This document shows positions 3,036-63,942 of a stretch of 64,000 nt of DNA, one piece after another. The notes under the pieces were generated by a model. That model did not search any database and was not told the origin of the DNA. It worked only from the letters and a program-made list of their open reading frames with translations. Within the stretch, counting starts at the first letter, position 1, and every line of letters begins with the position of its first letter. The translations under genes and the position numbers were made by a program. This DNA is from a phage: assembly GCA_016658885.1 (NCBI GenBank), contig GCA_016658885.1_4807.1. One strand, given 5' to 3'.

Positions 3036-3431
3036 ATGAAAGGTAATGATATGTCAAATAAGAATGATTCTATTCACAACACATATACTAAAGGCAGCGG
3101 AATGGCCTTTGGTGGCAGAATCAAAATTGACGTTCCAGCCTGCGATTCTGATGGGTTGGAAGTCGGCAACCGAGACTTAACATGGGTTTTACGTCGCCAA
3201 TCTGATTTAGAAGAGAAGCTGGAAAATATTGAGCGTTCTCTCGAAAGTTTGCGCGACCAGCTTTTTGGTTGTCCTGAAGATGATTCAAAACCTGGACCAT
3301 ATGCATCCAATCATGGTTTGATTGATAATATGCTTGCTATTACCGCTCGATCAATTGGTAAAACTGTGTCCATTGAATCATTGATCAGCCAGATTGCGGA
3401 TGGCTTTGGTGATGCCCATAAGAGCGAATAG
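3036..3431 (+). CDS. hypothetical protein (about 126-131 aa; start may be ATG at 3051)
   Basis: ORF track; no motif recognised. Confidence 0.45.
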   Translation: MKGNDMSNKNDSIHNTYTKGSGMAFGGRIKIDVPACDSDGLEVGNRDLTWVLRRQSDLEEKLENIERSLESLRDQLFGCPEDDSKPGPYASNHGLIDNMLAITARSIGKTVSIESLISQIADGFGDAHKSE

Positions 3432-3509
3432 TGGGTGGATGTCGCTTTAACCGTGAATCGTGGGTCGTGGGTCGCTTAGGGCGGCCCTTTCTTTTGCCTG
3501 CCGCGCAGG

Positions 3510-3775
3510 AGTGTACTGCAAATTTCCTGTGGGTACAAAATAGTACGGTACTGTCTAGGACTTTTTCTTTGAAAAGTTAGTGGGCAAATGTGTCGTATTT
3601 TGATTAGTGTACTGCAAATTTCATCAAGTACCAAAACGCACCAAAAGACCCATGCCATAAAAACCACACGAACGCAATAATCAATCGCCGTTACAGTTTC
3701 CAGCGTTACAATTCGAAAGCGAATGATTCGAAGCATAATAATATGAAGCATAATGATTCGAAAGCGAATGATTGC
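3510..3775. repeat. cluster of short direct repeats in a non-coding stretch
   Basis: AGTGTACTGCAAATTTC at 3510 and 3606; ATTCGAAAGCGAATGATT twice near 3711 and 3754; GAAGCATAAT twice near 3730 and 3746. Confidence 0.55.
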
Positions 3776-5456: not shown

Positions 5457-6083
5457 ATGGTTAGCTTAAATCGCTTTTCTACTAGCGGCGACGTTATCGC
5501 AACTAAGACCGCCGACCTCGTTGCATTCTATAATGCAAATTCCGGCTCAAAACCGATTAAGAAGTTTGCGGACCGCCGGACCGCCGAGACTCGCGTAATC
5601 GCGTTAATCGAGTCCTTAAACGCGCTCGATGCGCCGTCCAACGAATCGCCCATCCCCGACGCTAAGCCGCGCGAGGAAGTGTCCAGCGATGTAAAAACGC
5701 ATAAGGCGCGTGCGGTCGTTAAAAAGGCTGAGCCTACCCAGGAAGAACTCGACGCGATGACCGACGAAGAATATGAAGCCTTCGTTAAGAGCGGTTTAAA
5801 CGATAGTGCAAATTGCGTAGTGCAAAATGGAACTCCTTCCCATCGCCGTTCGAATAGCGAAGGTATTGCAAAAAGCTGGGATAATAAGGAAGTGGCGCAA
5901 AAGCGTCTCACCCGTAACGGCGTTATGGTCGAGGGTGTAGGCGAGTTCAAATCGGTCCGCGTAGCGTTCGGCGCGCTGGGATTACCGGATAGCAAGCACA
6001 TTCGCTTCCGCATGAAGCTTAAGGAAGCTGGGCGCTTGAACTTCGAGTTCGGCAACAAGTCCTACACCTTCCAGATTATCTAA
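5457..6083 (+). CDS. hypothetical protein (208 aa)
   Basis: ORF track; identical AGGAGTTTATTATG context; carries two ATAGTGCAAAT-type motifs internally. Confidence 0.5.
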   Translation: MVSLNRFSTSGDVIATKTADLVAFYNANSGSKPIKKFADRRTAETRVIALIESLNALDAPSNESPIPDAKPREEVSSDVKTHKARAVVKKAEPTQEELDAMTDEEYEAFVKSGLNDSANCVVQNGTPSHRRSNSEGIAKSWDNKEVAQKRLTRNGVMVEGVGEFKSVRVAFGALGLPDSKHIRFRMKLKEAGRLNFEFGNKSYTFQII

Positions 6084-6089
6084 TCGAAT

Positions 6090-6113
6090 GGCGGCCCTTC
6101 GGGGTCGCTTTTC
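6090..6113 (+). terminator. rho-independent terminator
   Basis: GCGGCCC-ttcg-GGGTCGC hairpin followed by TTTTC. Confidence 0.55.
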
Positions 6114-6511
6114 ATAGTGCAAATTGGTGGCTTATGAATACTCTCATTCTCATCGCTACGTTGTCCATCGGAAGTGGTCGCACCTTATCCCTTTATGATC
6201 ATAGTGCAAATTGCGCTTACCCAACGCGCGTTGCGGCAATAGTTAATAGTGCAAATCGAATGCTATTCGAGACTTGTTGGCGGGTCGATAACGAGAAAGG
6301 TCGGGTAGTCTTAGGTTATAGTGCAAATCTGCTGGTGGAGTCGTTCGATTGGACGGTTGAAGGTCGTAAATTGTTACGGAAAGTGACTAAAAGATGACTT
6401 ATAATAATACACTTTCTAACGCGTTTATGGTTGTAACCTTCCCCATCGTATTACCGATGGCCCTAGAAGTGGAGAAAATGTGTTCTAGGGCCGTTTTATA
6501 GTGCAAATTGG

Positions 6512-6985
6512 CTAGTGGCGGGAGAATTGCTCACCTTCTTTGGCCGCCTCTCCAAAATCCTTGTAGAAATCGTCCATAGAACGGCCCATTTTACTATTGC
6601 CGTTTTCATCAATCATCGTGATGCCGTAGATGATATTCAGTTCACGAATAGCATTAAGCTTGGCTGATGCCGCGACTTCTGGATCACGCACAAGCTTGAC
6701 CAAATTGTGAATTGCACCTTTTACGCTCCATAAATCCTTGAGTGGCATTTCTTCCATACGCTTTTTGAAGCGCATTTTGTAGTACGGATTGCGTTGTGCG
6801 CAAAGGATTCGCTGGCCAGTGTAGTTATCCGTTGCAACTTCCATTCCAAATACTAGTGCAAAAGCTGCGCGCATGTCATGGCCCTGAATAACAAGGTCAA
6901 TGAACTCATCGAATAAAGCCTGATTGTGCTCTGCAAATCGCGGGTCTTCAAAGTCTTCAGGCATCGCTACATAATCTTGACTCAT
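6512..6985 (-). CDS. hypothetical protein (about 157 aa)
   Basis: ORF track trimmed to the MSQDY start; no motif recognised. Confidence 0.45.
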   Translation of the reverse strand: MSQDYVAMPEDFEDPRFAEHNQALFDEFIDLVIQGHDMRAAFALVFGMEVATDNYTGQRILCAQRNPYYKMRFKKRMEEMPLKDLWSVKGAIHNLVKLVRDPEVAASAKLNAIRELNIIYGITMIDENGNSKMGRSMDDFYKDFGEAAKEGEQFSRH

Positions 6986-7221
6986 AGTGCAAAATCCCAT
7001 AGTGCAAATTAATAGTGTGAATTATACAATGGATGGACATTATATTCAAGTGCAGATTGATGTTCATTATGGCTATAAACGTACACAAATCATAGTGCTG
7101 AATGGATAACGGACCGTGGTGCGTGGTGTACTGTTTGATACGAATAAAAGAAATCCATCCCTTTCGCCGCTTGCTATGCAAATCAAAGACTTAGCCGCTG
7201 CTGGCTGGTTGAAGCGTATCA

Positions 7222-7590
7222 TGACGTATCATCCGTATTGCCGCAAGTCTTTGTTTTTACTTATATATTACGGATGATACGTTAAATATATAAATTAACA
7301 TAAGTATGAGGATGTAGAAAAAAATTAATTTAAATTAATTCAAAATGGAGTTAATTAATTTTTCAAATTATATATATAACGATGCCCAGTTTTATCCGTA
7401 TCATCCGTAAGATTAATGTACAAGCCAGGCGCGGCAAGGGCTGTACACTGATACGGATAAAAAACCATGACGTATCATGACGTAAGGGTGTACCAATTTG
7501 GAAAGGATGAATCCAGGAACGGCGCGGCCTGTAGCCATGATACGCTTAATTTTTAACCGTATTTTAAGCGTATCAAATGTGTTCAAACAC
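7222..7590. repeat. iteron-like repeat region with AT-rich core (origin-like), copy 1
   Basis: Direct and inverted copies of ACGGATGATACG / CGTATCATCCGTA flanking an AT-rich block at 7310-7380; similar to 60190..60462. Confidence 0.6.
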
Positions 7591-7816
7591 CACGTTTCAC
7601 GACACTAAAATTTCAATCCATAGATATAATCTAACAAACATCACGGACCAATAGACACGACCTATGAAATATATTTCTAAATATTTCCGCACAATCAATA
7701 AATAAAACACAACCTCATAATCATTCCATCGCAAAACACGACCCAAACAACAAAAGGCCGCATAAAGCGACCAATTGCACACATTCCATTCTTCAAAACA
7801 CACAAATCAATGTTCT

Positions 7817-8353
7817 TTATCCGCTGACCTTCCAGTCACCATTCCTTTTATCACGCTTCTTTAACTCCGTTTTAATGACATTATTATCCACAATAACTCC
7901 TAAACGGCGCAATTCACACATGACCTTGTGGCGATATTGTCGAAGCTTTTTGACGTCCATTGTGCTCCTTGAATAAGATAATACCATAAAAATAATATCA
8001 TCATTCATCTTGTAGCGCATACAAGTTTTATAATGCCTTTTGAAAATAGCATTAACGGCATCTGTTTTCAGCAATTCATCCATTAATTCTTGATTCCCTT
8101 CACAGACGTTAATGACCCATTCATCCCTTGATTTTGCCGCTTTCAATCCCCTTAGAGTTAATAACTCATATAATGCCTTTCTGCACTTAGAGCAATCACC
8201 AATTGTCAAACTTGATTCCATTTCTTGAGCATCGGTCAACTCTGTATTGCCTTTGCTGAATTTACCGCACAAGCTGATTTGCTCGCCGTCGTCAAAGTAG
8301 TGGGCAAGTTTTGAGTATCGCGGCTTGCCCCATCCTGCAACGTTACCCATCAC
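7817..8353 (-). CDS. hypothetical early protein (178 aa)
   Basis: ORF track; first gene of packed minus-strand array. Confidence 0.5.
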   Translation of the reverse strand: MMGNVAGWGKPRYSKLAHYFDDGEQISLCGKFSKGNTELTDAQEMESSLTIGDCSKCRKALYELLTLRGLKAAKSRDEWVINVCEGNQELMDELLKTDAVNAIFKRHYKTCMRYKMNDDIIFMVLSYSRSTMDVKKLRQYRHKVMCELRRLGVIVDNNVIKTELKKRDKRNGDWKVSG

Positions 8354-8775
8354 CCCTCCTTAACGACCCGATAAGCAACAATCTTTGCACCAGTCGGGCT
8401 TGTGACTTTATCCCATGTCAAACTATCCGAAGGAACGGCCTCTTTTGATTTATAACCGTTGAGTAATTCAAACTCAACCATCTTCCCAGGCACCGGATTC
8501 TCTCCACCACGCCACACGGTCCACGCTTCATCCTGCTTTTCGCAAGCATCAACATCCACGCCTATAGTGGAAACGACGTCATGTAACTGCTTAACGAGCG
8601 CCGACGCATCACGGACCTGTGAGCGTAATGCAACCAACTCGCGTTGCGCTTCGCTATATTTCTCTTCCAGCGCGGCGTAGTCCTCATATTCAACGTAGCC
8701 GCCTTCATTATCCTTTACAACTTCGCAAGTGCAAGCGTGCTGCGTGCAATAATCAACATCGTAACGTTGTATCAT
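8350..8775 (-). CDS. hypothetical early protein (141 aa) with conserved C-terminal module
   Basis: C-terminus NPVPGKMVEFELLNGYKS...SDSLTWDKV...IVAYRVV is paralogous to the C-terminus of 9924..10430. Confidence 0.5.
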   Translation of the reverse strand: MIQRYDVDYCTQHACTCEVVKDNEGGYVEYEDYAALEEKYSEAQRELVALRSQVRDASALVKQLHDVVSTIGVDVDACEKQDEAWTVWRGGENPVPGKMVEFELLNGYKSKEAVPSDSLTWDKVTSPTGAKIVAYRVVKEG

Positions 8776-9266
8776 TCTAACTTCTCCAAAATTTCAATGG
8801 CAATCTGCGTTTGCTTCTCAAGCGCGAGACGCAACATGTCAATTTGCAAGTCACGATGGGCCAGTTCAGCGGCGATGTCTGACTTGCTGTAAAGTCCTTC
8901 ATGAGTCATGGCATAGATGTGGCGCGTATAATAGCCGCCCTCGTCGAGTTGCTCGATGTCACGTTGCCCGACTGCATATTGGTTATCGGTCGATGGCGCT
9001 TGGTCCTGAATTTTGATTGCTGCCACTTCCTTTAATGAATCGCGTGATGCGGGTCTGTTCTTTTCAAGCATCTTCACTTGGTCGATGCGCTCGCACCAAA
9101 CTGAACCACAGGCTTCATACAACCACTGGCCGCGCCGCTCTTCCCATACAGGTTTTCCCTCATACAACCAAATGCTGCCATTGGAATCGCGCGCAACGAA
9201 TCGCGCACGAGCGTCTATTTCGTATTCTTTACCTTCAAAATTGATGCGCTGCGTTTTGTTAGTCAT
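8772..9266 (-). CDS. hypothetical early protein (164 aa)
   Basis: ORF track; stop/start overlap with neighbours. Confidence 0.5.
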   Translation of the reverse strand: MTNKTQRINFEGKEYEIDARARFVARDSNGSIWLYEGKPVWEERRGQWLYEACGSVWCERIDQVKMLEKNRPASRDSLKEVAAIKIQDQAPSTDNQYAVGQRDIEQLDEGGYYTRHIYAMTHEGLYSKSDIAAELAHRDLQIDMLRLALEKQTQIAIEILEKLE

Positions 9267-58667: not shown

Positions 58668-60086
58668 TTATTCCCCTTTCAACCAAGCTTCAAATGCTTC
58701 GTCAGTTGCTGCAGAATCCGCAGCGGCCTTTTGTTTTGCGACTACACGCTGTTTTTGACCGTGTTCAACGCCGCGTAGATAATTATCCACCACGTCAAAC
58801 TCAGCACCATCAACGCACTTCAAGCCTAACTTTTTAGCGCCATATTTCGCTACGGACTTGGAGTCCATAGTTGCATGATCAAAGGCACCAACAACTTTAG
58901 ACAGGCGCTGGTAGAGGCTATTCTTACGAGCAGAATCAGCGTAGAAAGCAGCAACTGCTGAATCAGATGCCATTGAGTGTTCCCCTTTTGCTGGACCTGG
59001 CGACGCTTTCGCCGCTTTTGTCGGTTTGTCATCTTTTTCGACCGAAGCCCCCTTTACGTTGCTGTTTTGCAGGCCGCTAACCACATCTTCAGCTTTGTCG
59101 CAAGGTGATACATCTTCAGCCTTGACTTCAACTTCTTCGTCTTTGACTTCGGCTTCAACTTCTTCTTCATCACCTACCGCGCCACCTTTCAGTTTTGCAA
59201 TAAGTGCTTCGATTTGGCTGATCAGTTGCGGAAGCTCGCCGCCAGCGTGAGATTCAGTTTCAACTTCAAACTTCTCTTCACCTTCTGGAGTCTCTTCAGC
59301 TTCTGCTTTGACTTCTGGATCAACCATCACTTCTTCACGTTCTTCGGTTGAATCCTTCTCTTCTGCTTTCACTTCAACTTCGTCCTGATGAGCAGCTTCG
59401 GTGCTCTCTTCATTCAGAAATTGTTCGAGCGCAGGGATCAGTGATTTCAGCTGTTCAACAGCATTATCACGCGCTTTACCTTTTAACGGTTTTGGCATGT
59501 CTAAATCCTCGTTGGATGGTGTTACAGTCGTCAAACAAAGATGGTCAAAGCAACGACCATCCAGCACCCGTGCACCTGGTACTCGACCAACGTCCACGAG
59601 AGCAATGTGGTTGCCGCGAAGAGTTGTTTGTACCACTTCATACGGCTGCCCGTCAAACTCTCCAGACTGTATGATGAATTCACAGTCATAGCCCAAAGAC
59701 AAGTCAACCTTTCCAGAATCGATGGCCTTCTTCAGACGACGGCTAAAAACTTTAAGGTCGCCGCGCATCCATGGCTTGTCATAATAAACATTGCCAGTTA
59801 GAACGCCATCAACGCCATACTCTTCGGGTGCTGTGTTATCCTCATCACCTTCGAATCCAGAAAGCATTTCGTGATTGTCGATGAAAGGGATATTTTTGAA
59901 TGAATCTATCGCTTCGGGGTCTTTCACCGCTGACTCTGGGCGATAAACTTTTACGATGCGATTCGGATCACCATCAAGTCCAACCTGACCTGCAGAATAA
60001 TCAAAAATGCCAAATGACGAAATGGGACAACCCACAATCGTCAAGAATCCATTTTTGTCAATTTCGCGTGCCGTTTGCATTCGCAT
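58668..60086 (-). CDS. prohead protease / scaffold-like protein
   Basis: Globular N-terminal domain followed by highly acidic EEVEAEVKDEEVEVKAED region. Confidence 0.5.
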   Translation of the reverse strand: MRMQTAREIDKNGFLTIVGCPISSFGIFDYSAGQVGLDGDPNRIVKVYRPESAVKDPEAIDSFKNIPFIDNHEMLSGFEGDEDNTAPEEYGVDGVLTGNVYYDKPWMRGDLKVFSRRLKKAIDSGKVDLSLGYDCEFIIQSGEFDGQPYEVVQTTLRGNHIALVDVGRVPGARVLDGRCFDHLCLTTVTPSNEDLDMPKPLKGKARDNAVEQLKSLIPALEQFLNEESTEAAHQDEVEVKAEEKDSTEEREEVMVDPEVKAEAEETPEGEEKFEVETESHAGGELPQLISQIEALIAKLKGGAVGDEEEVEAEVKDEEVEVKAEDVSPCDKAEDVVSGLQNSNVKGASVEKDDKPTKAAKASPGPAKGEHSMASDSAVAAFYADSARKNSLYQRLSKVVGAFDHATMDSKSVAKYGAKKLGLKCVDGAEFDVVDNYLRGVEHGQKQRVVAKQKAAADSAATDEAFEAWLKGE

Positions 60087-60189
60087 CCACCCTCAAATAA
60101 GTATTGTGTATTATATCTAATGAAAAAAACTTAGGCAAACAATAATTATGGTTTGAATATGTATAACAACCGATATAGCCGCGCCTTAA

Positions 60190-60462
60190 TTAGTGTGATA
60201 CGGATGATACGGATAAAATGAGGCGTATTTTTATCCGTATCGGTGTATAAGCCGCGCTATCACTGGTGTGCTACGGATGATACGGATGATACGGATACTT
60301 TTCATATATAAGAGTTTATAAAAAAAATAAAATTAAATTAGATATATAATTTTAAATTAATTTATTTGAATTCCTATAAAGTATCGCGGCAACGCGTATC
60401 ATCCGTATCATCCGTAAGATTCTTTTGAAAACAACTACTTACTTGATACGGATGATACGTCA
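60190..60462. repeat. iteron-like repeat region with AT-rich core (origin-like), copy 2
   Basis: GATACGGATGATACGGATA, CGTATCATCCGTATCATCCGTAAGATT and AT-rich 60300-60370 block; mirrors 7222..7590. Confidence 0.6.
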
Positions 60463-60713
60463 TTATACGCGTGAAATCCTGCGGCAATCCATTGCCAGGC
60501 GATTCAGTGAATATTAAATAGCACTCCTGCAACTAAAACGCCAATCAGCATTGAGTCATAAACAGCCCATTTCCAAGAAAGCAAAGAGTTGCAATTAATA
60601 TTTCGCACTTTAACATAACGTGACTGAATAATCTTTTGCATAACTTCCTCTTTAGTTCATATCAAATTAATAATTGCACAGTTTAAATTGCGCTTATTTA
60701 CAACTATCTTAAT

Positions 60714-61565
60714 TCAGATAATTGGTATTTTCCTGCACTTGCAGTGTATTGCCCATCCAGGAGGACCGATGTCACCCTTTTTGAACTTCAATTCGCCGCC
60801 AACTTCCCATAGGCGCTTGTCATCAAGTTTGAATCTCATTCCGTCGACGTGTTCATGAGAGATTCGCGGCTCCTTTCCTGCTCCTGAGTGCGCCCACTCA
60901 AATTCTTCGACTCCATTCTGGCGCATCCTTTCATCGCTTAGAACGCAATACAATTTGCTTGTCTGGTCTTTAGCGATTAAGTCGACTCTCTTTGCAGAGA
61001 AGTGCTTTACGTTTCGCAACGCCGCCTGAATGCCTGACGTGCCTTGCTGGGCTGGGTCAGGCGAAGTCAGCGAAAGCATGACTGCTTCGTACACTCTGTT
61101 GTGAATATCCTCGCCGACCTTAGTAACTAGAGTCGTGTTAAACGTCTCGCTTGTTCTAAGAGTGTTCTCAACGAATTTGTTATATGTGGCCTTTGGCGCT
61201 TCTATGCCTGCGGACTTAAGGCTTGCGAATGTAGCAGAAGTGGCACCCTTTTCGACCGATTTGATAAAATCAGCGGCAATCTTCGACCCAACACGTGCAA
61301 ATGCCTTTGCCCATTTCAGTTGCAGCCGTTTCATAAGGGTCTGGAATGTCGAATCAGCAGAGTCTTGCGCAAAGAACTTCTGCACCTGCTTCTTTTCAAG
61401 CCACTCTGAAATTCCTGCCTGATAGTCATCAATCATCGCATAGCAAAGACCTTTCATCTCACGACGGTAGGCCATCGCAATAGCGTTTGATGGGATTATC
61501 GGACTGCCGCGCCCGATTCTATCGGGTGAGCGGCGTTCACGTTTTTTCGAAGCTTTAAAAGCCAT
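60714..61565 (-). CDS. minor head / head morphogenesis protein (Mu F-like)
   Basis: Start trimmed to MAFKASKK; position directly after portal gene. Confidence 0.5.
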   Translation of the reverse strand: MAFKASKKRERRSPDRIGRGSPIIPSNAIAMAYRREMKGLCYAMIDDYQAGISEWLEKKQVQKFFAQDSADSTFQTLMKRLQLKWAKAFARVGSKIAADFIKSVEKGATSATFASLKSAGIEAPKATYNKFVENTLRTSETFNTTLVTKVGEDIHNRVYEAVMLSLTSPDPAQQGTSGIQAALRNVKHFSAKRVDLIAKDQTSKLYCVLSDERMRQNGVEEFEWAHSGAGKEPRISHEHVDGMRFKLDDKRLWEVGGELKFKKGDIGPPGWAIHCKCRKIPII

Positions 61566-61566
61566 A

Positions 61567-63942
61567 TCAACCTTGCTTCGGTGAATTAGTAGGATTATTG
61601 AGCGCTCCGTATGCTTGAGAGCAATCACCCTTCAACCACTCCTTGAATGAGTCTACATCTAATTCGTGGATTGAATCGAATCCATTCCAACCGTTACCAA
61701 ATGACGCCTGATAAGCTTCTTTAGCTTCTTCTGCTGAATCGAATCCAAGCATGCATTTGTGTTCATCAAATTCGCCAGAATAATTATCATTTTGGTTAAC
61801 GATGAATACTTTAGGCGACTTCATATTTGGTCCAACAAAGCAGTCGACTTCATCACCATCAGCACCCTTGGTGCCTTTGATGAATCCGTAGTGGTGCGCC
61901 ATTTTGACTGCCCATTCACCATCAAGACTGTTACCCCTGCGAATGCTGTTGCGAGGATTCTCGATGCCAAGAATCATCCCGTGCAACTTCATCTTAGGCA
62001 GCGACGCTGCATCCATCTTCCCTACGTTGTGTCGCAAGTTGACGACATTTCCTTTTACGCTTGGAATCGTGGACGGTTGCACCGACCTTGCATCTTTTTG
62101 AGGGTCAAAATCCACATCCTGACCTTCTTTAAGGTAATAGTCAGCAATACCCTCCAGACCTTCTTTCAGTTGCGTTAGGACATCAACGTGATGGCTTGAT
62201 TCGTCATCGGTATCATCCATGTTAATCTCAACTGGTGCCCTGTCAGGGTTTTCTGCCAACTCACCACGCGCGGCACCTTCCGGCATTATACCAGTCTCGC
62301 TATAGAACTGGCCGCTCATCTTGACAACATCAGCCTTGGCCTGTTCAATATCGGCCTTACCTTGCAGAACTTCACCAGCAGACTTGCCAAGCAATGCCAT
62401 ATTCTCTGGAGACATCCCTGGGGTTTCTTCTGCTGCTTCTTCCGGCAAACGGTTGTAGCCGCTGTTTTTGTCGTCCTTGATGCGGTCGCGCTCTTCATCA
62501 GGGGAGATTACGCCAGCATCGATGAGAGTCTTACCAGTATTCGCTCGTTTGTCGTTAATCTCTGCAAGCTGAGTAGCAGTAAGTGAACCAACTGGCTCCC
62601 ATGCCACTTTAACGTCGACTTCCACGCCTTCAGATTTCAAAAGGATTTTATAGTGACGGTCCAGAATCTTCGTCAAATCGTGCTGCTGACAAGTTTCCAA
62701 TTCTTCGTGATAGCTGACCATCTCGAACTCACCAGTGGCGTTAAAGCCTTTAGGTGACGTCCCTAACAGTTTTGTCGACGGCACTTTTGCGATTGCGGCC
62801 ACCAGCTGGTACTGGTTCATGATGATGCTGTCGAAGTCTGACAAGTTGATGTCGAACTGGTCCATTTCTTCTTTCTGACCAAGCACTTTGACTGCATAGT
62901 TGTCGCGGTACTTGATCCACATCATCAGACGTTCTGCAAAAGACCGCTCATTGGCAATAGCCTTGTCAACGTCGGTCCGCAGCGTCGTTGTACGCTTGGA
63001 CATCGCCAGCAATGGCGCTTCGTTAGCGGTACGTTCAGCGGCATAGATGCGTTCATAAATCTGCTGAGTCAGAGGAATGCCGCCGTAAATATAAGTCGGC
63101 TTGAGAATATCAGCTGGCTCATCGTTGCGCAAGATTATGAGGTGGCTGCGATGATAACGTTGTCCGCTGATTACCCAATATTCTGGGTCATAGAAGTGCT
63201 GTGATGCAGGGTCTGCTGTGTTTTCAGACGTCAGAAACGGCATCATCCAATAAGGGTCAACCTGAATGATTCCCTTATAAGACCCCTTTGTCACACCATC
63301 AATGTTAAAAGGCTTGCTGTAATATTCTGGGTCATCGCTACGCACATCAAATATGATGACGCGGATACCAAAAATATTTTTGAATCGTTCGGCTTCAACT
63401 AAGTGCTCTTTGATATTAAATTCTTTATCAATTTGCTTTAGGCGTTCGCTTGCCTGTACTGACAATTCTGACTCAGAACTGGATTTAACTTCCCAACCTT
63501 TACGGACCGCATCGCGGCCTACCATGGAACACGCCTTGTTCACCAGCCAATGCTGTGCGATGATGGCACAAGCTTGATAGCCGATGAATGACTGTGACAA
63601 ATACCAGTTTTGAAGTTGAATAGGTACTGTGTATGGGTTGACTTGCCCTTCTGAACTGATGTTCTTTAAGGCATTATCCATAACCTTTTTGGATACTGTT
63701 GCGGAATCGACTGAACGACCTTTTATGATTGCAACACCATCGCCATTAATATCAGGCTCATATAAAGGGAAGTCATCAACCGTTTTAAAGGTCGGTCGAT
63801 TGCTTTCAGTCTTTTCCCAGCGTTGACCGCTGCCGCGCCTTGCAAGGCGTTCAAACGGTGCCAATGGGTCGCCTGGCGGCATCTCCGCTGGTTCGGCTTC
63901 TGGTTGCGTCTTCTCCCAGAGTTTTATGCCAAGAATTTTCAT
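61567..63942 (-). CDS. portal protein with C-terminal inorganic-pyrophosphatase-like extension
   Basis: About 790 aa; start ATG 63942 after AGGTGG; C-terminal HYGFIKGTKGADGDEVDCFV resembles PPase NYGYI...DGDPVDVLV. Confidence 0.55.
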   Translation of the reverse strand: MKILGIKLWEKTQPEAEPAEMPPGDPLAPFERLARRGSGQRWEKTESNRPTFKTVDDFPLYEPDINGDGVAIIKGRSVDSATVSKKVMDNALKNISSEGQVNPYTVPIQLQNWYLSQSFIGYQACAIIAQHWLVNKACSMVGRDAVRKGWEVKSSSESELSVQASERLKQIDKEFNIKEHLVEAERFKNIFGIRVIIFDVRSDDPEYYSKPFNIDGVTKGSYKGIIQVDPYWMMPFLTSENTADPASQHFYDPEYWVISGQRYHRSHLIILRNDEPADILKPTYIYGGIPLTQQIYERIYAAERTANEAPLLAMSKRTTTLRTDVDKAIANERSFAERLMMWIKYRDNYAVKVLGQKEEMDQFDINLSDFDSIIMNQYQLVAAIAKVPSTKLLGTSPKGFNATGEFEMVSYHEELETCQQHDLTKILDRHYKILLKSEGVEVDVKVAWEPVGSLTATQLAEINDKRANTGKTLIDAGVISPDEERDRIKDDKNSGYNRLPEEAAEETPGMSPENMALLGKSAGEVLQGKADIEQAKADVVKMSGQFYSETGIMPEGAARGELAENPDRAPVEINMDDTDDESSHHVDVLTQLKEGLEGIADYYLKEGQDVDFDPQKDARSVQPSTIPSVKGNVVNLRHNVGKMDAASLPKMKLHGMILGIENPRNSIRRGNSLDGEWAVKMAHHYGFIKGTKGADGDEVDCFVGPNMKSPKVFIVNQNDNYSGEFDEHKCMLGFDSAEEAKEAYQASFGNGWNGFDSIHELDVDSFKEWLKGDCSQAYGALNNPTNSPKQG

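Follow-up and report, generated by a model that had tools for sequence, protein, structure and literature searches.

The pac site of phage P1, reportedly characterized by Sternberg and Coulby between 1987 and 1990, has a repeated short word on both sides of a central cleavage, lies in or beside the small-terminase gene, includes an IHF-type site, and is where packaging makes its first cut. Its repeats, TGATCA/G hexamers, are regulated by Dam methylation, packaging is by the headful mechanism, and no conserved second copy of pac is known. In SPP1 (pacL-pacC-pacR, described in the review PMC9611059) and lambda (cosB/cosN), the small terminase touches repeats that flank or adjoin the place cut by the large subunit, and the site lies beside the small-terminase gene, terS. 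In the twin-ring model of pac synapsis in T4, summarized in the same review (PMC9611059), two homologous targets of the small terminase subunit (TerS), in genes 16 and 19 and several kb apart, are proposed to be joined by stacked rings. T4 does not cut at a unique site, and its packaging starts from random ends.

Repeats around AT-rich DNA are also found at replication sites. In iteron origins that have a second cis site, such as P4 ori plus crr, lambda ori, and HSV oriS, an AT-rich region has short repeats on its sides, in direct and inverted orientation, and in P4 one protein binds two separate clusters. The concatemer junction of T7, reportedly analyzed by White and Richardson in 1987 and by Chung, Nardone and Hinkle in 1990, has an exact terminal repeat, close to whose outer boundary lie an inverted repeat and a secondary origin rich in AT, both implicated in repeat duplication and end processing. 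The T7 repeat is 160 bp long and depends on promoters for the phage RNA polymerase.

We analyzed a 64-kb stretch of phage DNA (the window) that contains two repeat elements, R1, beside terS, and R2, upstream of the head-protease gene. R1 shares with P1 pac the repeated word on both sides of a central cut, the position beside terS, and the IHF-type site. Unlike P1, there are two precise virion ends with an exact terminal repeat of 3.7 kb, and R1 has a conserved second copy. R1 and R2 contain no GATC (Dam sites), so there is no P1-style methylation control. The likeness to SPP1 and lambda is in the repeats around the cut and the neighboring terS; the differences are that the sites fall into two classes, lineage-specific repeats with a period of 8-11 bp and family-wide GCGGC boxes, and that the layout is mirror-symmetric over ~400 bp and duplicated elsewhere in the genome. 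By analogy with T4, synapsis between R1 and R2 is a speculation; unlike T4, this phage has a unique cut site. Unlike the iteron origins, no initiator gene was identified here, there are no DnaA boxes, and the property that has been measured is a DNA end. The dependence of the T7 repeat on a phage polymerase sets T7 apart from this family, which has no phage RNA polymerase according to the JG024 genome paper (PMC3008698).

That 2010 paper also describes motifs of unclear function and suggests that they are recognized by a phage sigma factor; they may be elements of the R1/R2 type. The paper does not connect the motifs with genome ends, terS, the pairing of R1 and R2, or a change of word between genera. 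In the literature that we searched, we found no link of these elements to genome ends, terS, or a paired design, and no report of an intergenus word change. Pac-like sites as such are known; the new features are a conserved uncut twin of such a site and a two-tier motif grammar.

Results

The window is from a Wifcevirus genome

Megablast searches with positions 6000-9000 and 59000-62000 of the window matched ~30 phage genomes at 91-98% identity. All but one were Wifcevirus (including ECML-117, WFC, WFH, FEC19, Mansfield, and the BASEL phages Bas98-101), and the exception was a weak match to a Pantoea phage. By these matches, the window is from an E. coli phage of Wifcevirus, a genus of virulent myoviruses of E. 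coli and Shigella in the family Lindbergviridae. The closest relative, TH35, has both elements, separated by ~16 kb, and the window is therefore a 64-kb slice of a circularly permuted record of ~69 kb. A spacing of ~53 kb between the two copies had been noted previously. That value is correct within the window; the other way round the ~69-kb genome, the distance is only ~16 kb.

The window lacks a gene of ~920 nt (WFC_00024), with 54 nt in its place at 60660-60713, between a small ORF and the minor-capsid gene. The gene is called 'head fiber' or 'tail fiber protein' in some records. Direct alignment showed it to be present in WFC and TH35, and the other relatives all give the same two-piece match.

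R1 and R2 are paralogous arrays of repeats around AT-rich DNA

R1 (7136-7575) and R2 (60177-60470), neither of which is assigned to a strand, both lie within unusually long gaps between minus-strand genes. TGATACG-type copies are present in R1 at 7136(+), 7215(-), 7225(-), 7275(+), 7397(-), 7449(+), 7471(-), 7538(+), and 7569(-), and in R2 at 60196(+), 60205(+), 60236(-, GATACG only), 60278(+), 60287(+), 60395(-), 60404(-), 60444(+), and 60453(+). The first-pass annotation had placed the first element at 7222-7590. An element is indeed there, with different limits: its repeat copies run from 7136 to 7575 in a gap that extends from 7001 to 7816.

The repeat words are largely confined to the two elements. 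Exact counts over the 64 kb placed all 12 copies of ATGATACG within 7215-7544 and 60204-60459, and all nine copies of ACGGATGATACG within R1 and R2; for TGATACG, the count was 17 of 22. Allowing one mismatch, GATACGGAT had 25 matches, compared to 11.1 ± 3.2 in shuffled sequence, and 25 matches were reached in none of 100 shuffles. Longer versions of the repeat were also found: CGTATCATCCGTA at 7225 and 7397 and its complement TACGGATGATACG at 7269. As claimed at first reading, one sequence is present in the same orientation in both regions (CGTATCATCCGTAAGATT, on the plus strand at 7397-7414 and 60404-60421).

The inner inverted copies of R1, at 7269-7281 (TACGGATGATACG) and 7389-7410 (GTTTTATCCGTATCATCCGTA), enclose a spacer that is 86% AT (7283-7381). 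The AT block of R2 (60297-60385) is enclosed by two inverted arms of 22 nt that match perfectly (60272-60293 and 60395-60416). In the 64 kb, no other 100-nt intervals are as AT-rich as 7283-7382 and 60285-60384, both with 86% AT; the mean is 54%, and the next-best interval after the two blocks has 77%. Repeats with an AT-rich block, in two copies, are thus what the counts support. At both elements the repeat copies nearest the AT block point inward (plus on the left, minus on the right). GCGGC boxes are found in R1 between 7166 and 7528, with GCCGC at 7166, 7194, and 7240 left of the center and GCGGC at 7431 and 7524 on the right, and in R2 as GCCGC at 60178 and 60251 and GCGGC at 60386 and 60481. 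R1 also contains a single exact match to the IHF consensus (AATCAAAGACTTA, 7181-7193, plus strand), one of seven in the whole window. This match is also present in WFC, and there is none in R2.

In an alignment of R1, the R1 element of phage WFH, and R2, the inner repeat arrays, the AT block, and the outer boxes were in common, and on this alignment R2 is a paralogue of R1. To the right of ~7413, the R1 sequence is swapped for unrelated sequence in about half of the Wifcevirus genomes. The replacement in WFH is closely similar to the matching half of R2 (TATAAAGTATAGCGGCGACGCGTATCATCCGTATCATCCGTAAGAT…TACGTCATTATACGC), and therefore R1 and R2 either exchange sequence or share ancestry. R2 was 99.0-99.8% identical in 18 of the 29 matching records, versus 97-98% for the surrounding 3 kb of genes. 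We looked for a third repeat cluster in TH35, including the ~4.3 kb that is absent from the window, and found none.

The mosaic boundary lies just past the right inner repeat of R1, and the affected region (7413-7816) reaches to the next gene. Small minus-strand ORFs at 7413-7586 and 7597-7803 were treated as non-coding because this stretch is replaced in about half of the relatives. The elements were also considered as structured RNA genes. An Rfam scan had no match in R1 and, in R2, just hairpin matches far below threshold, and a tRNA scan of both regions found no tRNA genes; with no match to a curated RNA family, we rejected this candidate.

The arrangement of R1 and R2 is also what might be expected of a pair of replication origins, as the first-pass annotation had proposed, with an initiator binding the flanking repeats and opening the AT block. 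Clustered iteron-like direct and inverted repeats flanking the two most AT-rich blocks of the window have the textbook look of an origin and fit this explanation equally well. There are two copies per genome, and the layout is palindromic, with a strong potential for single-strand folding (z = -6.7 for R2 and -5.0 for R1). An origin at R1 would be compatible with a cut at the same place. In contrast, there was no match to the DnaA box TTATNCACA in R1 when one mismatch was allowed, and the two one-mismatch matches in R2 are near the background rate. The cumulative GC skew turns with gene orientation rather than specifically at R1 or R2, and so cannot locate an origin. In Pbunavirus, the skew minima are inside the block of replication genes and not at these sites (PMC12390725). 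In addition, R2 lies within the late structural module. The architecture is what speaks for dual origins, and we consider it unlikely that both elements are origins.

R1 adjoins terS and R2 precedes the head-protease gene

The gene next to R1 (6512-7000, minus strand) encodes a protein similar to the small terminase of Pseudomonas phage E217, a decamer solved by cryo-EM (PDB 7UXE; phmmer E = 6.1e-34), and it has the same annotation in Mansfield. The protein belongs to PHROG 4783, a family without a name, and no Pfam model was found for it. By this homology, the product of 6512-7000 is TerS. Comparison between lineages showed that the N-terminal ~90 residues of TerS are variable and the C-terminal core is conserved. 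Two overlapping sigma70-like promoters (7021-7066, minus strand, 10/12 matches each) lead into terS. A terminator-like hairpin at 7756-7772 (minus strand) ends the upstream block of minus-strand genes, and the hairpin and the terS promoter bracket a gap of ~690 nt that has R1 inside.

The position of terS next to an R1-type element is the same in Kyle, JG024, SMP, PCSE1, and BcepF1. This neighbor, kept in every lineage, may argue against origins, as no initiator of the Rep, O, or alpha type was identified beside either site. A DNA primase gene is directly before R1 in JG024, Ab27, and BcepF1, as might be expected near an origin; in this window the primase gene does not abut R1. In BcepF1 (NC_009015.1, L017 20040-20530), the terS homologue is on the minus strand, yet only short hypothetical ORFs on the plus strand are annotated there, which is probably a mis-annotation.

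Downstream of R2 is a sigma70-like promoter (60110-60138, minus strand, TTGCCT-17-TATAAT) leading into a gene for a head maturation protease of the DUF2213 type (58668-60086, minus strand), the first gene of a protease/scaffold/capsid block. Directly upstream of R2 is an ORF of 45 aa (60504-60641, minus strand) with, by eye, a hydrophobic C-terminus. Small ORFs of ~45-70 aa are at the same position in JG024, Kyle, SMP, and BcepF1. We considered the 45-aa product as a possible binder of the repeats and set it aside, because the hydrophobic C-terminus suggests a membrane peptide rather than a DNA-binding protein.

The positions of the promoters raise the possibility that R1 and R2 are upstream control modules, made of activator or repressor arrays and curved AT-rich DNA, for the terS and protease/scaffold/capsid promoters, and that the terminase uses one of them as a landmark. 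In every lineage the element is followed, within ~60-150 nt, by a sigma70-like promoter into terS or the protease gene; R1 and R2 themselves are 60-450 nt upstream of such promoters, which are strong. Control of these promoters would explain why there are exactly two copies, both in front of genes. Judging by its promoter number, P001 of Pbunavirus 14-1 may be the terS promoter. P001, which is sigma70-like, is potent in both E. coli and Pseudomonas (PMC10914365). The dosage of TerS also matters, as overexpression lowers the infectivity of E217 (PMC9611059). However, the repeats are far upstream and symmetric about the spacer, not over the promoter. The promoters match the host consensus, and those sigma70-like promoters of 14-1 that were tested were active without phage factors. 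We regard promoter control as a doubtful explanation of the elements.

The DNA end of the virion maps to the center of R1

Several linear Wifcevirus records in GenBank have an exact direct terminal repeat at both ends, and we used the ends of the records to locate the ends of virion DNA. Position 1 of the WFC, WFH, Ro157lw, and SP13 records corresponds to window position 7346, as does the start of Mansfield. The coordinates of ECP_WGS_SA1 match those of WFH, giving a sixth record with an end between 7346 and 7347 (7346/7347), and the end of the ECO71P1 record is ~10 nt away. These positions come from the GenBank records and papers of other laboratories, with that of Mansfield derived from PhageTerm, and the record ends are perhaps not all independent, as some may have been set by homology to earlier records; the ends of Mansfield, WFC/WFH, Kyle, Ab27, and JG024 are from different laboratories and methods. 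By homology to the record ends, virion DNA has its left physical end at 7346/7347, between …AATTCAAAAT and GGAGTTAATT…, and the direct terminal repeat has its left boundary at the same point.

The cut at 7346/7347 is 7 nt from the center of the R1 dyad (~7339); the inner repeat copies are at distances of 65 nt (left) and 43 nt (right). The terminal repeat, present at both ends of virion DNA, extends from 7346 downwards to 3644 (3703 bp in this window). The window has a single copy, since its record is a permuted assembly in which the repeat is collapsed. The WFC repeat has a length of 3784 bp, and its start could be read directly off its two copies. Within the terminal repeat, terS comes first, ~350 nt from the end of the DNA, and the direction of the repeat indicates that packaged DNA runs from the cut towards terS. 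R2 does not have the cut-site string of R1 (AACTCC/ATTTTG in the terS orientation), which is kept in all aligned versions of R1, and none of the GenBank records of the relatives begins or ends at R2.

The right end of virion DNA is at a different kind of site (3510-3644). The cut is homologous to window 3643/3644 (…CGCACCA followed by AAAGACCC…) in WFH, Ro157lw, SP13, and Mansfield, and direct repeats of AGTGTACTGCAAATTT are at 3510 and 3606. The repeat word of R1 and R2 is absent from this site. In WFC alone, the right end is 80 nt further on (3563/3564). The site has a motif of its own, CAGTACACTAATCA, ~30 nt outside the end and common to Pantoea phage Kyle, which suggests a separate termination signal. 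A tandem heptamer, GTGGGTC, follows the gene that ends at 3431 and is found at 3440-3475. Its copy number varies, with two copies in the window and 5-6 in Mansfield (955-1005).

Fixed ends were found at the corresponding place in two other genera. Kyle has an exact terminal repeat of 3603 bp, and its left end (CCTAAAAAAATGATAAATTC/ACTTAAAAAAAATAC) is in the AT block of its R1, between arrays of GGTTATT. Reports of Pbunavirus genome ends have been described as contradictory (PMC12390725), and these phages are now thought to be headful packagers (PMC10913387, PMC12390725). The start of the Ab27 record was set from reads with fixed termination (PMC4482731), and Ipoutcha et al. proposed a pac site at JG024 position 59,376 based on a restriction fragment and long reads (PMC10913387). 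We found that the Ab27 start aligns exactly to JG024 59,376, the same nucleotide as the proposed pac. This nucleotide is inside the R1 of JG024, with the left array (CCAATTTCCTAATTTCCGG) on one side and the AT block and right array on the other. Therefore, three genera (Wifcevirus, Kylevirus, and Pbunavirus) have a fixed DNA end in the spacer of the element next to terS.

A fixed virion end in the R1 spacer, seen in five Wifcevirus record ends, Kyle, Ab27, and the putative pac of JG024, together with the adjacent small-terminase gene, is what is found at pac-type sites, and it supports the earlier suggestion of a packaging site for the flagged region. A DNA end at the center of the spacer in three genera is left unexplained by promoter control. 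It is also the sole direct experimental signal at these sites, which counts against origins, as initiation is not what was detected. R1 is at the upstream edge of the terminal repeat, and so, if replication started at R1, the repeat would already be duplicated when the cut is made, an order of events that has been proposed for T7, with its secondary origin beside the concatemer junction.

Each lineage has its own repeat word, common to both elements

We used tblastn with TerS and with the protease and found homologues across the Lindbergviridae. Wifcevirus was compared with five more lineages, represented by Kyle, JG024, PCSE1, BcepF1, and SMP. In each lineage examined, one element precedes terS and its paralogue precedes the protease gene, and the design is the same: tandem and inverted repeats with a period of 8-11 bp around an AT-rich block, followed by a sigma70-like promoter. 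Within each genome, the alignment of R1 to R2 spans 200-260 nt.

The repeat word is different in each lineage. In place of the TGATACG of Wifcevirus, R1 and R2 have in common GGTTATT / AATAACC in Kyle (Kylevirus), AATTTCC / TAATTTGG (also AATTTGG) in JG024 (Pbunavirus), and ATATCGG / CCGTTATAT (CCGATAT/CCGTTAT) in Salmonella phage PCSE1. In BcepF1 (Bcepfunavirus), all 16 copies of TAACTAA in the genome are in R1 (seven) and R2 (nine). For Serratia phage SMP (Myosmarvirus), the word is AAAGTAA; the upstream truncation of its R1 makes the support weak. The SMP element next to terS (L016 2440-2830) seemingly consists of the terS-side half only, and an annotated gene reaches the AT block. Each word is nearly absent from the rest of its genome, and a matrix of counts of the top 7-mers of each lineage in all of the elements was essentially diagonal. 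A scan of IMG/VR with CGTATCATCCGTAAGAT recovered GenBank copies of Wifcevirus, one metagenome contig, and unrelated chance matches, and added no diversity.

Comparison of the lineages shows that the word changes at R1 and R2 together. The simplest reading of this is that one phage-encoded protein, with a specificity that drifts, would recognize both sites. The first-pass annotation had raised the possibility that both are binding sites for one phage protein, and the finding that genera keep both sites and change the word jointly strongly supports such a protein, as judged from sequence comparison. A phage-encoded initiator would be expected to cause the same change of word, and in this respect the result is also consistent with origins.

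A second class of motif does not follow the lineages. GCGGC pentamers, with a consensus of roughly TCGCGGCAA, are outside the repeat arrays and distinct from the lineage-specific word. In 13 elements from six lineages, 58 of the 59 pentamers were mirror-oriented about the AT peak, reading GCCGC on its left side and GCGGC on its right (binomial p = 2e-16, a value that overstates independence since the elements are related to each other). GCGGC is common in these genomes, so the signal is in the orientation and not in the count.

The comparison also bears on two explanations in which the elements would have nothing to do with packaging, replication, or promoters. Arrays of short direct repeats are characteristic of the plasmid centromeres parC/parS, and R1 and R2 resemble them in this; the first-pass annotation had listed a partition site among its possibilities. 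This proposal found no support: the phage is a virulent myovirus, for which no plasmid stage is reported (PMC11990801), and there were no partition genes beside either site in the annotation of the relatives. A chance cluster of repeats without function is excluded by the restriction of the repeat word to R1 and R2, the recurrence of the design in five other lineages, and the conservation of R2 above that of its flanking genes. We consider a centromere-like site or a functionless cluster highly improbable.

Discussion

We conclude, with a probability of roughly 0.7, that R1 is a packaging or terminus site and that R1 and R2 are both arrays for one phage protein. With a repeated short word flanking a central cut, terS next to it, and one IHF site, R1 has the layout of the P1 and SPP1 sites, and it is for this reason that we read R1 as the place where the terminase recognizes and cleaves the DNA. 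We infer that the repeats in both elements are protein-binding sites.

In the mechanism that we propose, the terminase would act on replicated, concatemeric DNA and cut it at 7346/7347, within an AT-rich spacer flanked by inward-facing, lineage-specific arrays (TGATACGGA, with a period of 9 bp) with GCGGC boxes outside them. By this cut, virion DNA would gain its left end and the ~3.7-kb direct terminal repeat its left edge; the repeat starts with the terS promoter and gene. A cut at a different, second site (3643/3644) would create the right end. The repeats would bind one phage-encoded protein, with a specificity that differs by genus.

The most likely candidate for this protein is TerS. It is the obvious candidate because its gene adjoins R1 in every lineage and its N-terminus is variable; in addition, ring-shaped small terminases are thought to touch DNA at regular short intervals (PMC9611059). 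In the one published test that our search turned up, purified E217 TerS had no appreciable DNA binding in vitro (PMC9611059), which counts against this assignment. Taking these points together, we give TerS slightly less than an even chance of being the protein that binds the repeats of R1 and R2.

A role in packaging leaves R2, the second conserved copy, which precedes the head genes, unaccounted for, and it is odd that R2 has the better repeat arrays if the repeats serve cutting at R1. R2 would be expected to bind the same protein. It could be a partner site where terminase assembles or synapses, it could regulate the head operon, or it could serve as an origin. As a partner site for TerS, it could function in a manner akin to the twin-ring synapsis of T4. 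For the TerS of E217, a C-terminal helix is reported that may allow rings to stack (PMC9611059). Alternatively, R2, and R1 at terS, could be a control module that ties a strong promoter to occupancy by the same protein. It is also possible that R2 is an origin of replication, which would fit its palindromic design of iterons plus AT-rich DNA.

There may be a two-site system in the Lindbergviridae, in which TerS rings bridge R1 and its uncut twin, or the elements may be combined origin-and-packaging modules. We think that the odds are against either of these. If there is bridging, it could restrict the first cut to mature concatemers, or link packaging to the production of heads. If the elements combine an origin with a packaging site, duplication of the terminal repeat would be tied to the formation of ends.

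The Pbunaviruses, to which this phage is related, are counted among the most widely used therapeutic phages of Pseudomonas (PMC11990801). Knowledge of packaging signals is useful when synthetic genomes are rebooted, when transduction is to be predicted, and when the true end is to be chosen as the start of a genome record. The elements provide a candidate recognition sequence at the level of single bases, with a different word in each lineage, which makes experiments on binding, swapping, and mutation straightforward. The uncut twin that precedes the head operon could show what coordinates packaging with the production of heads or with replication.
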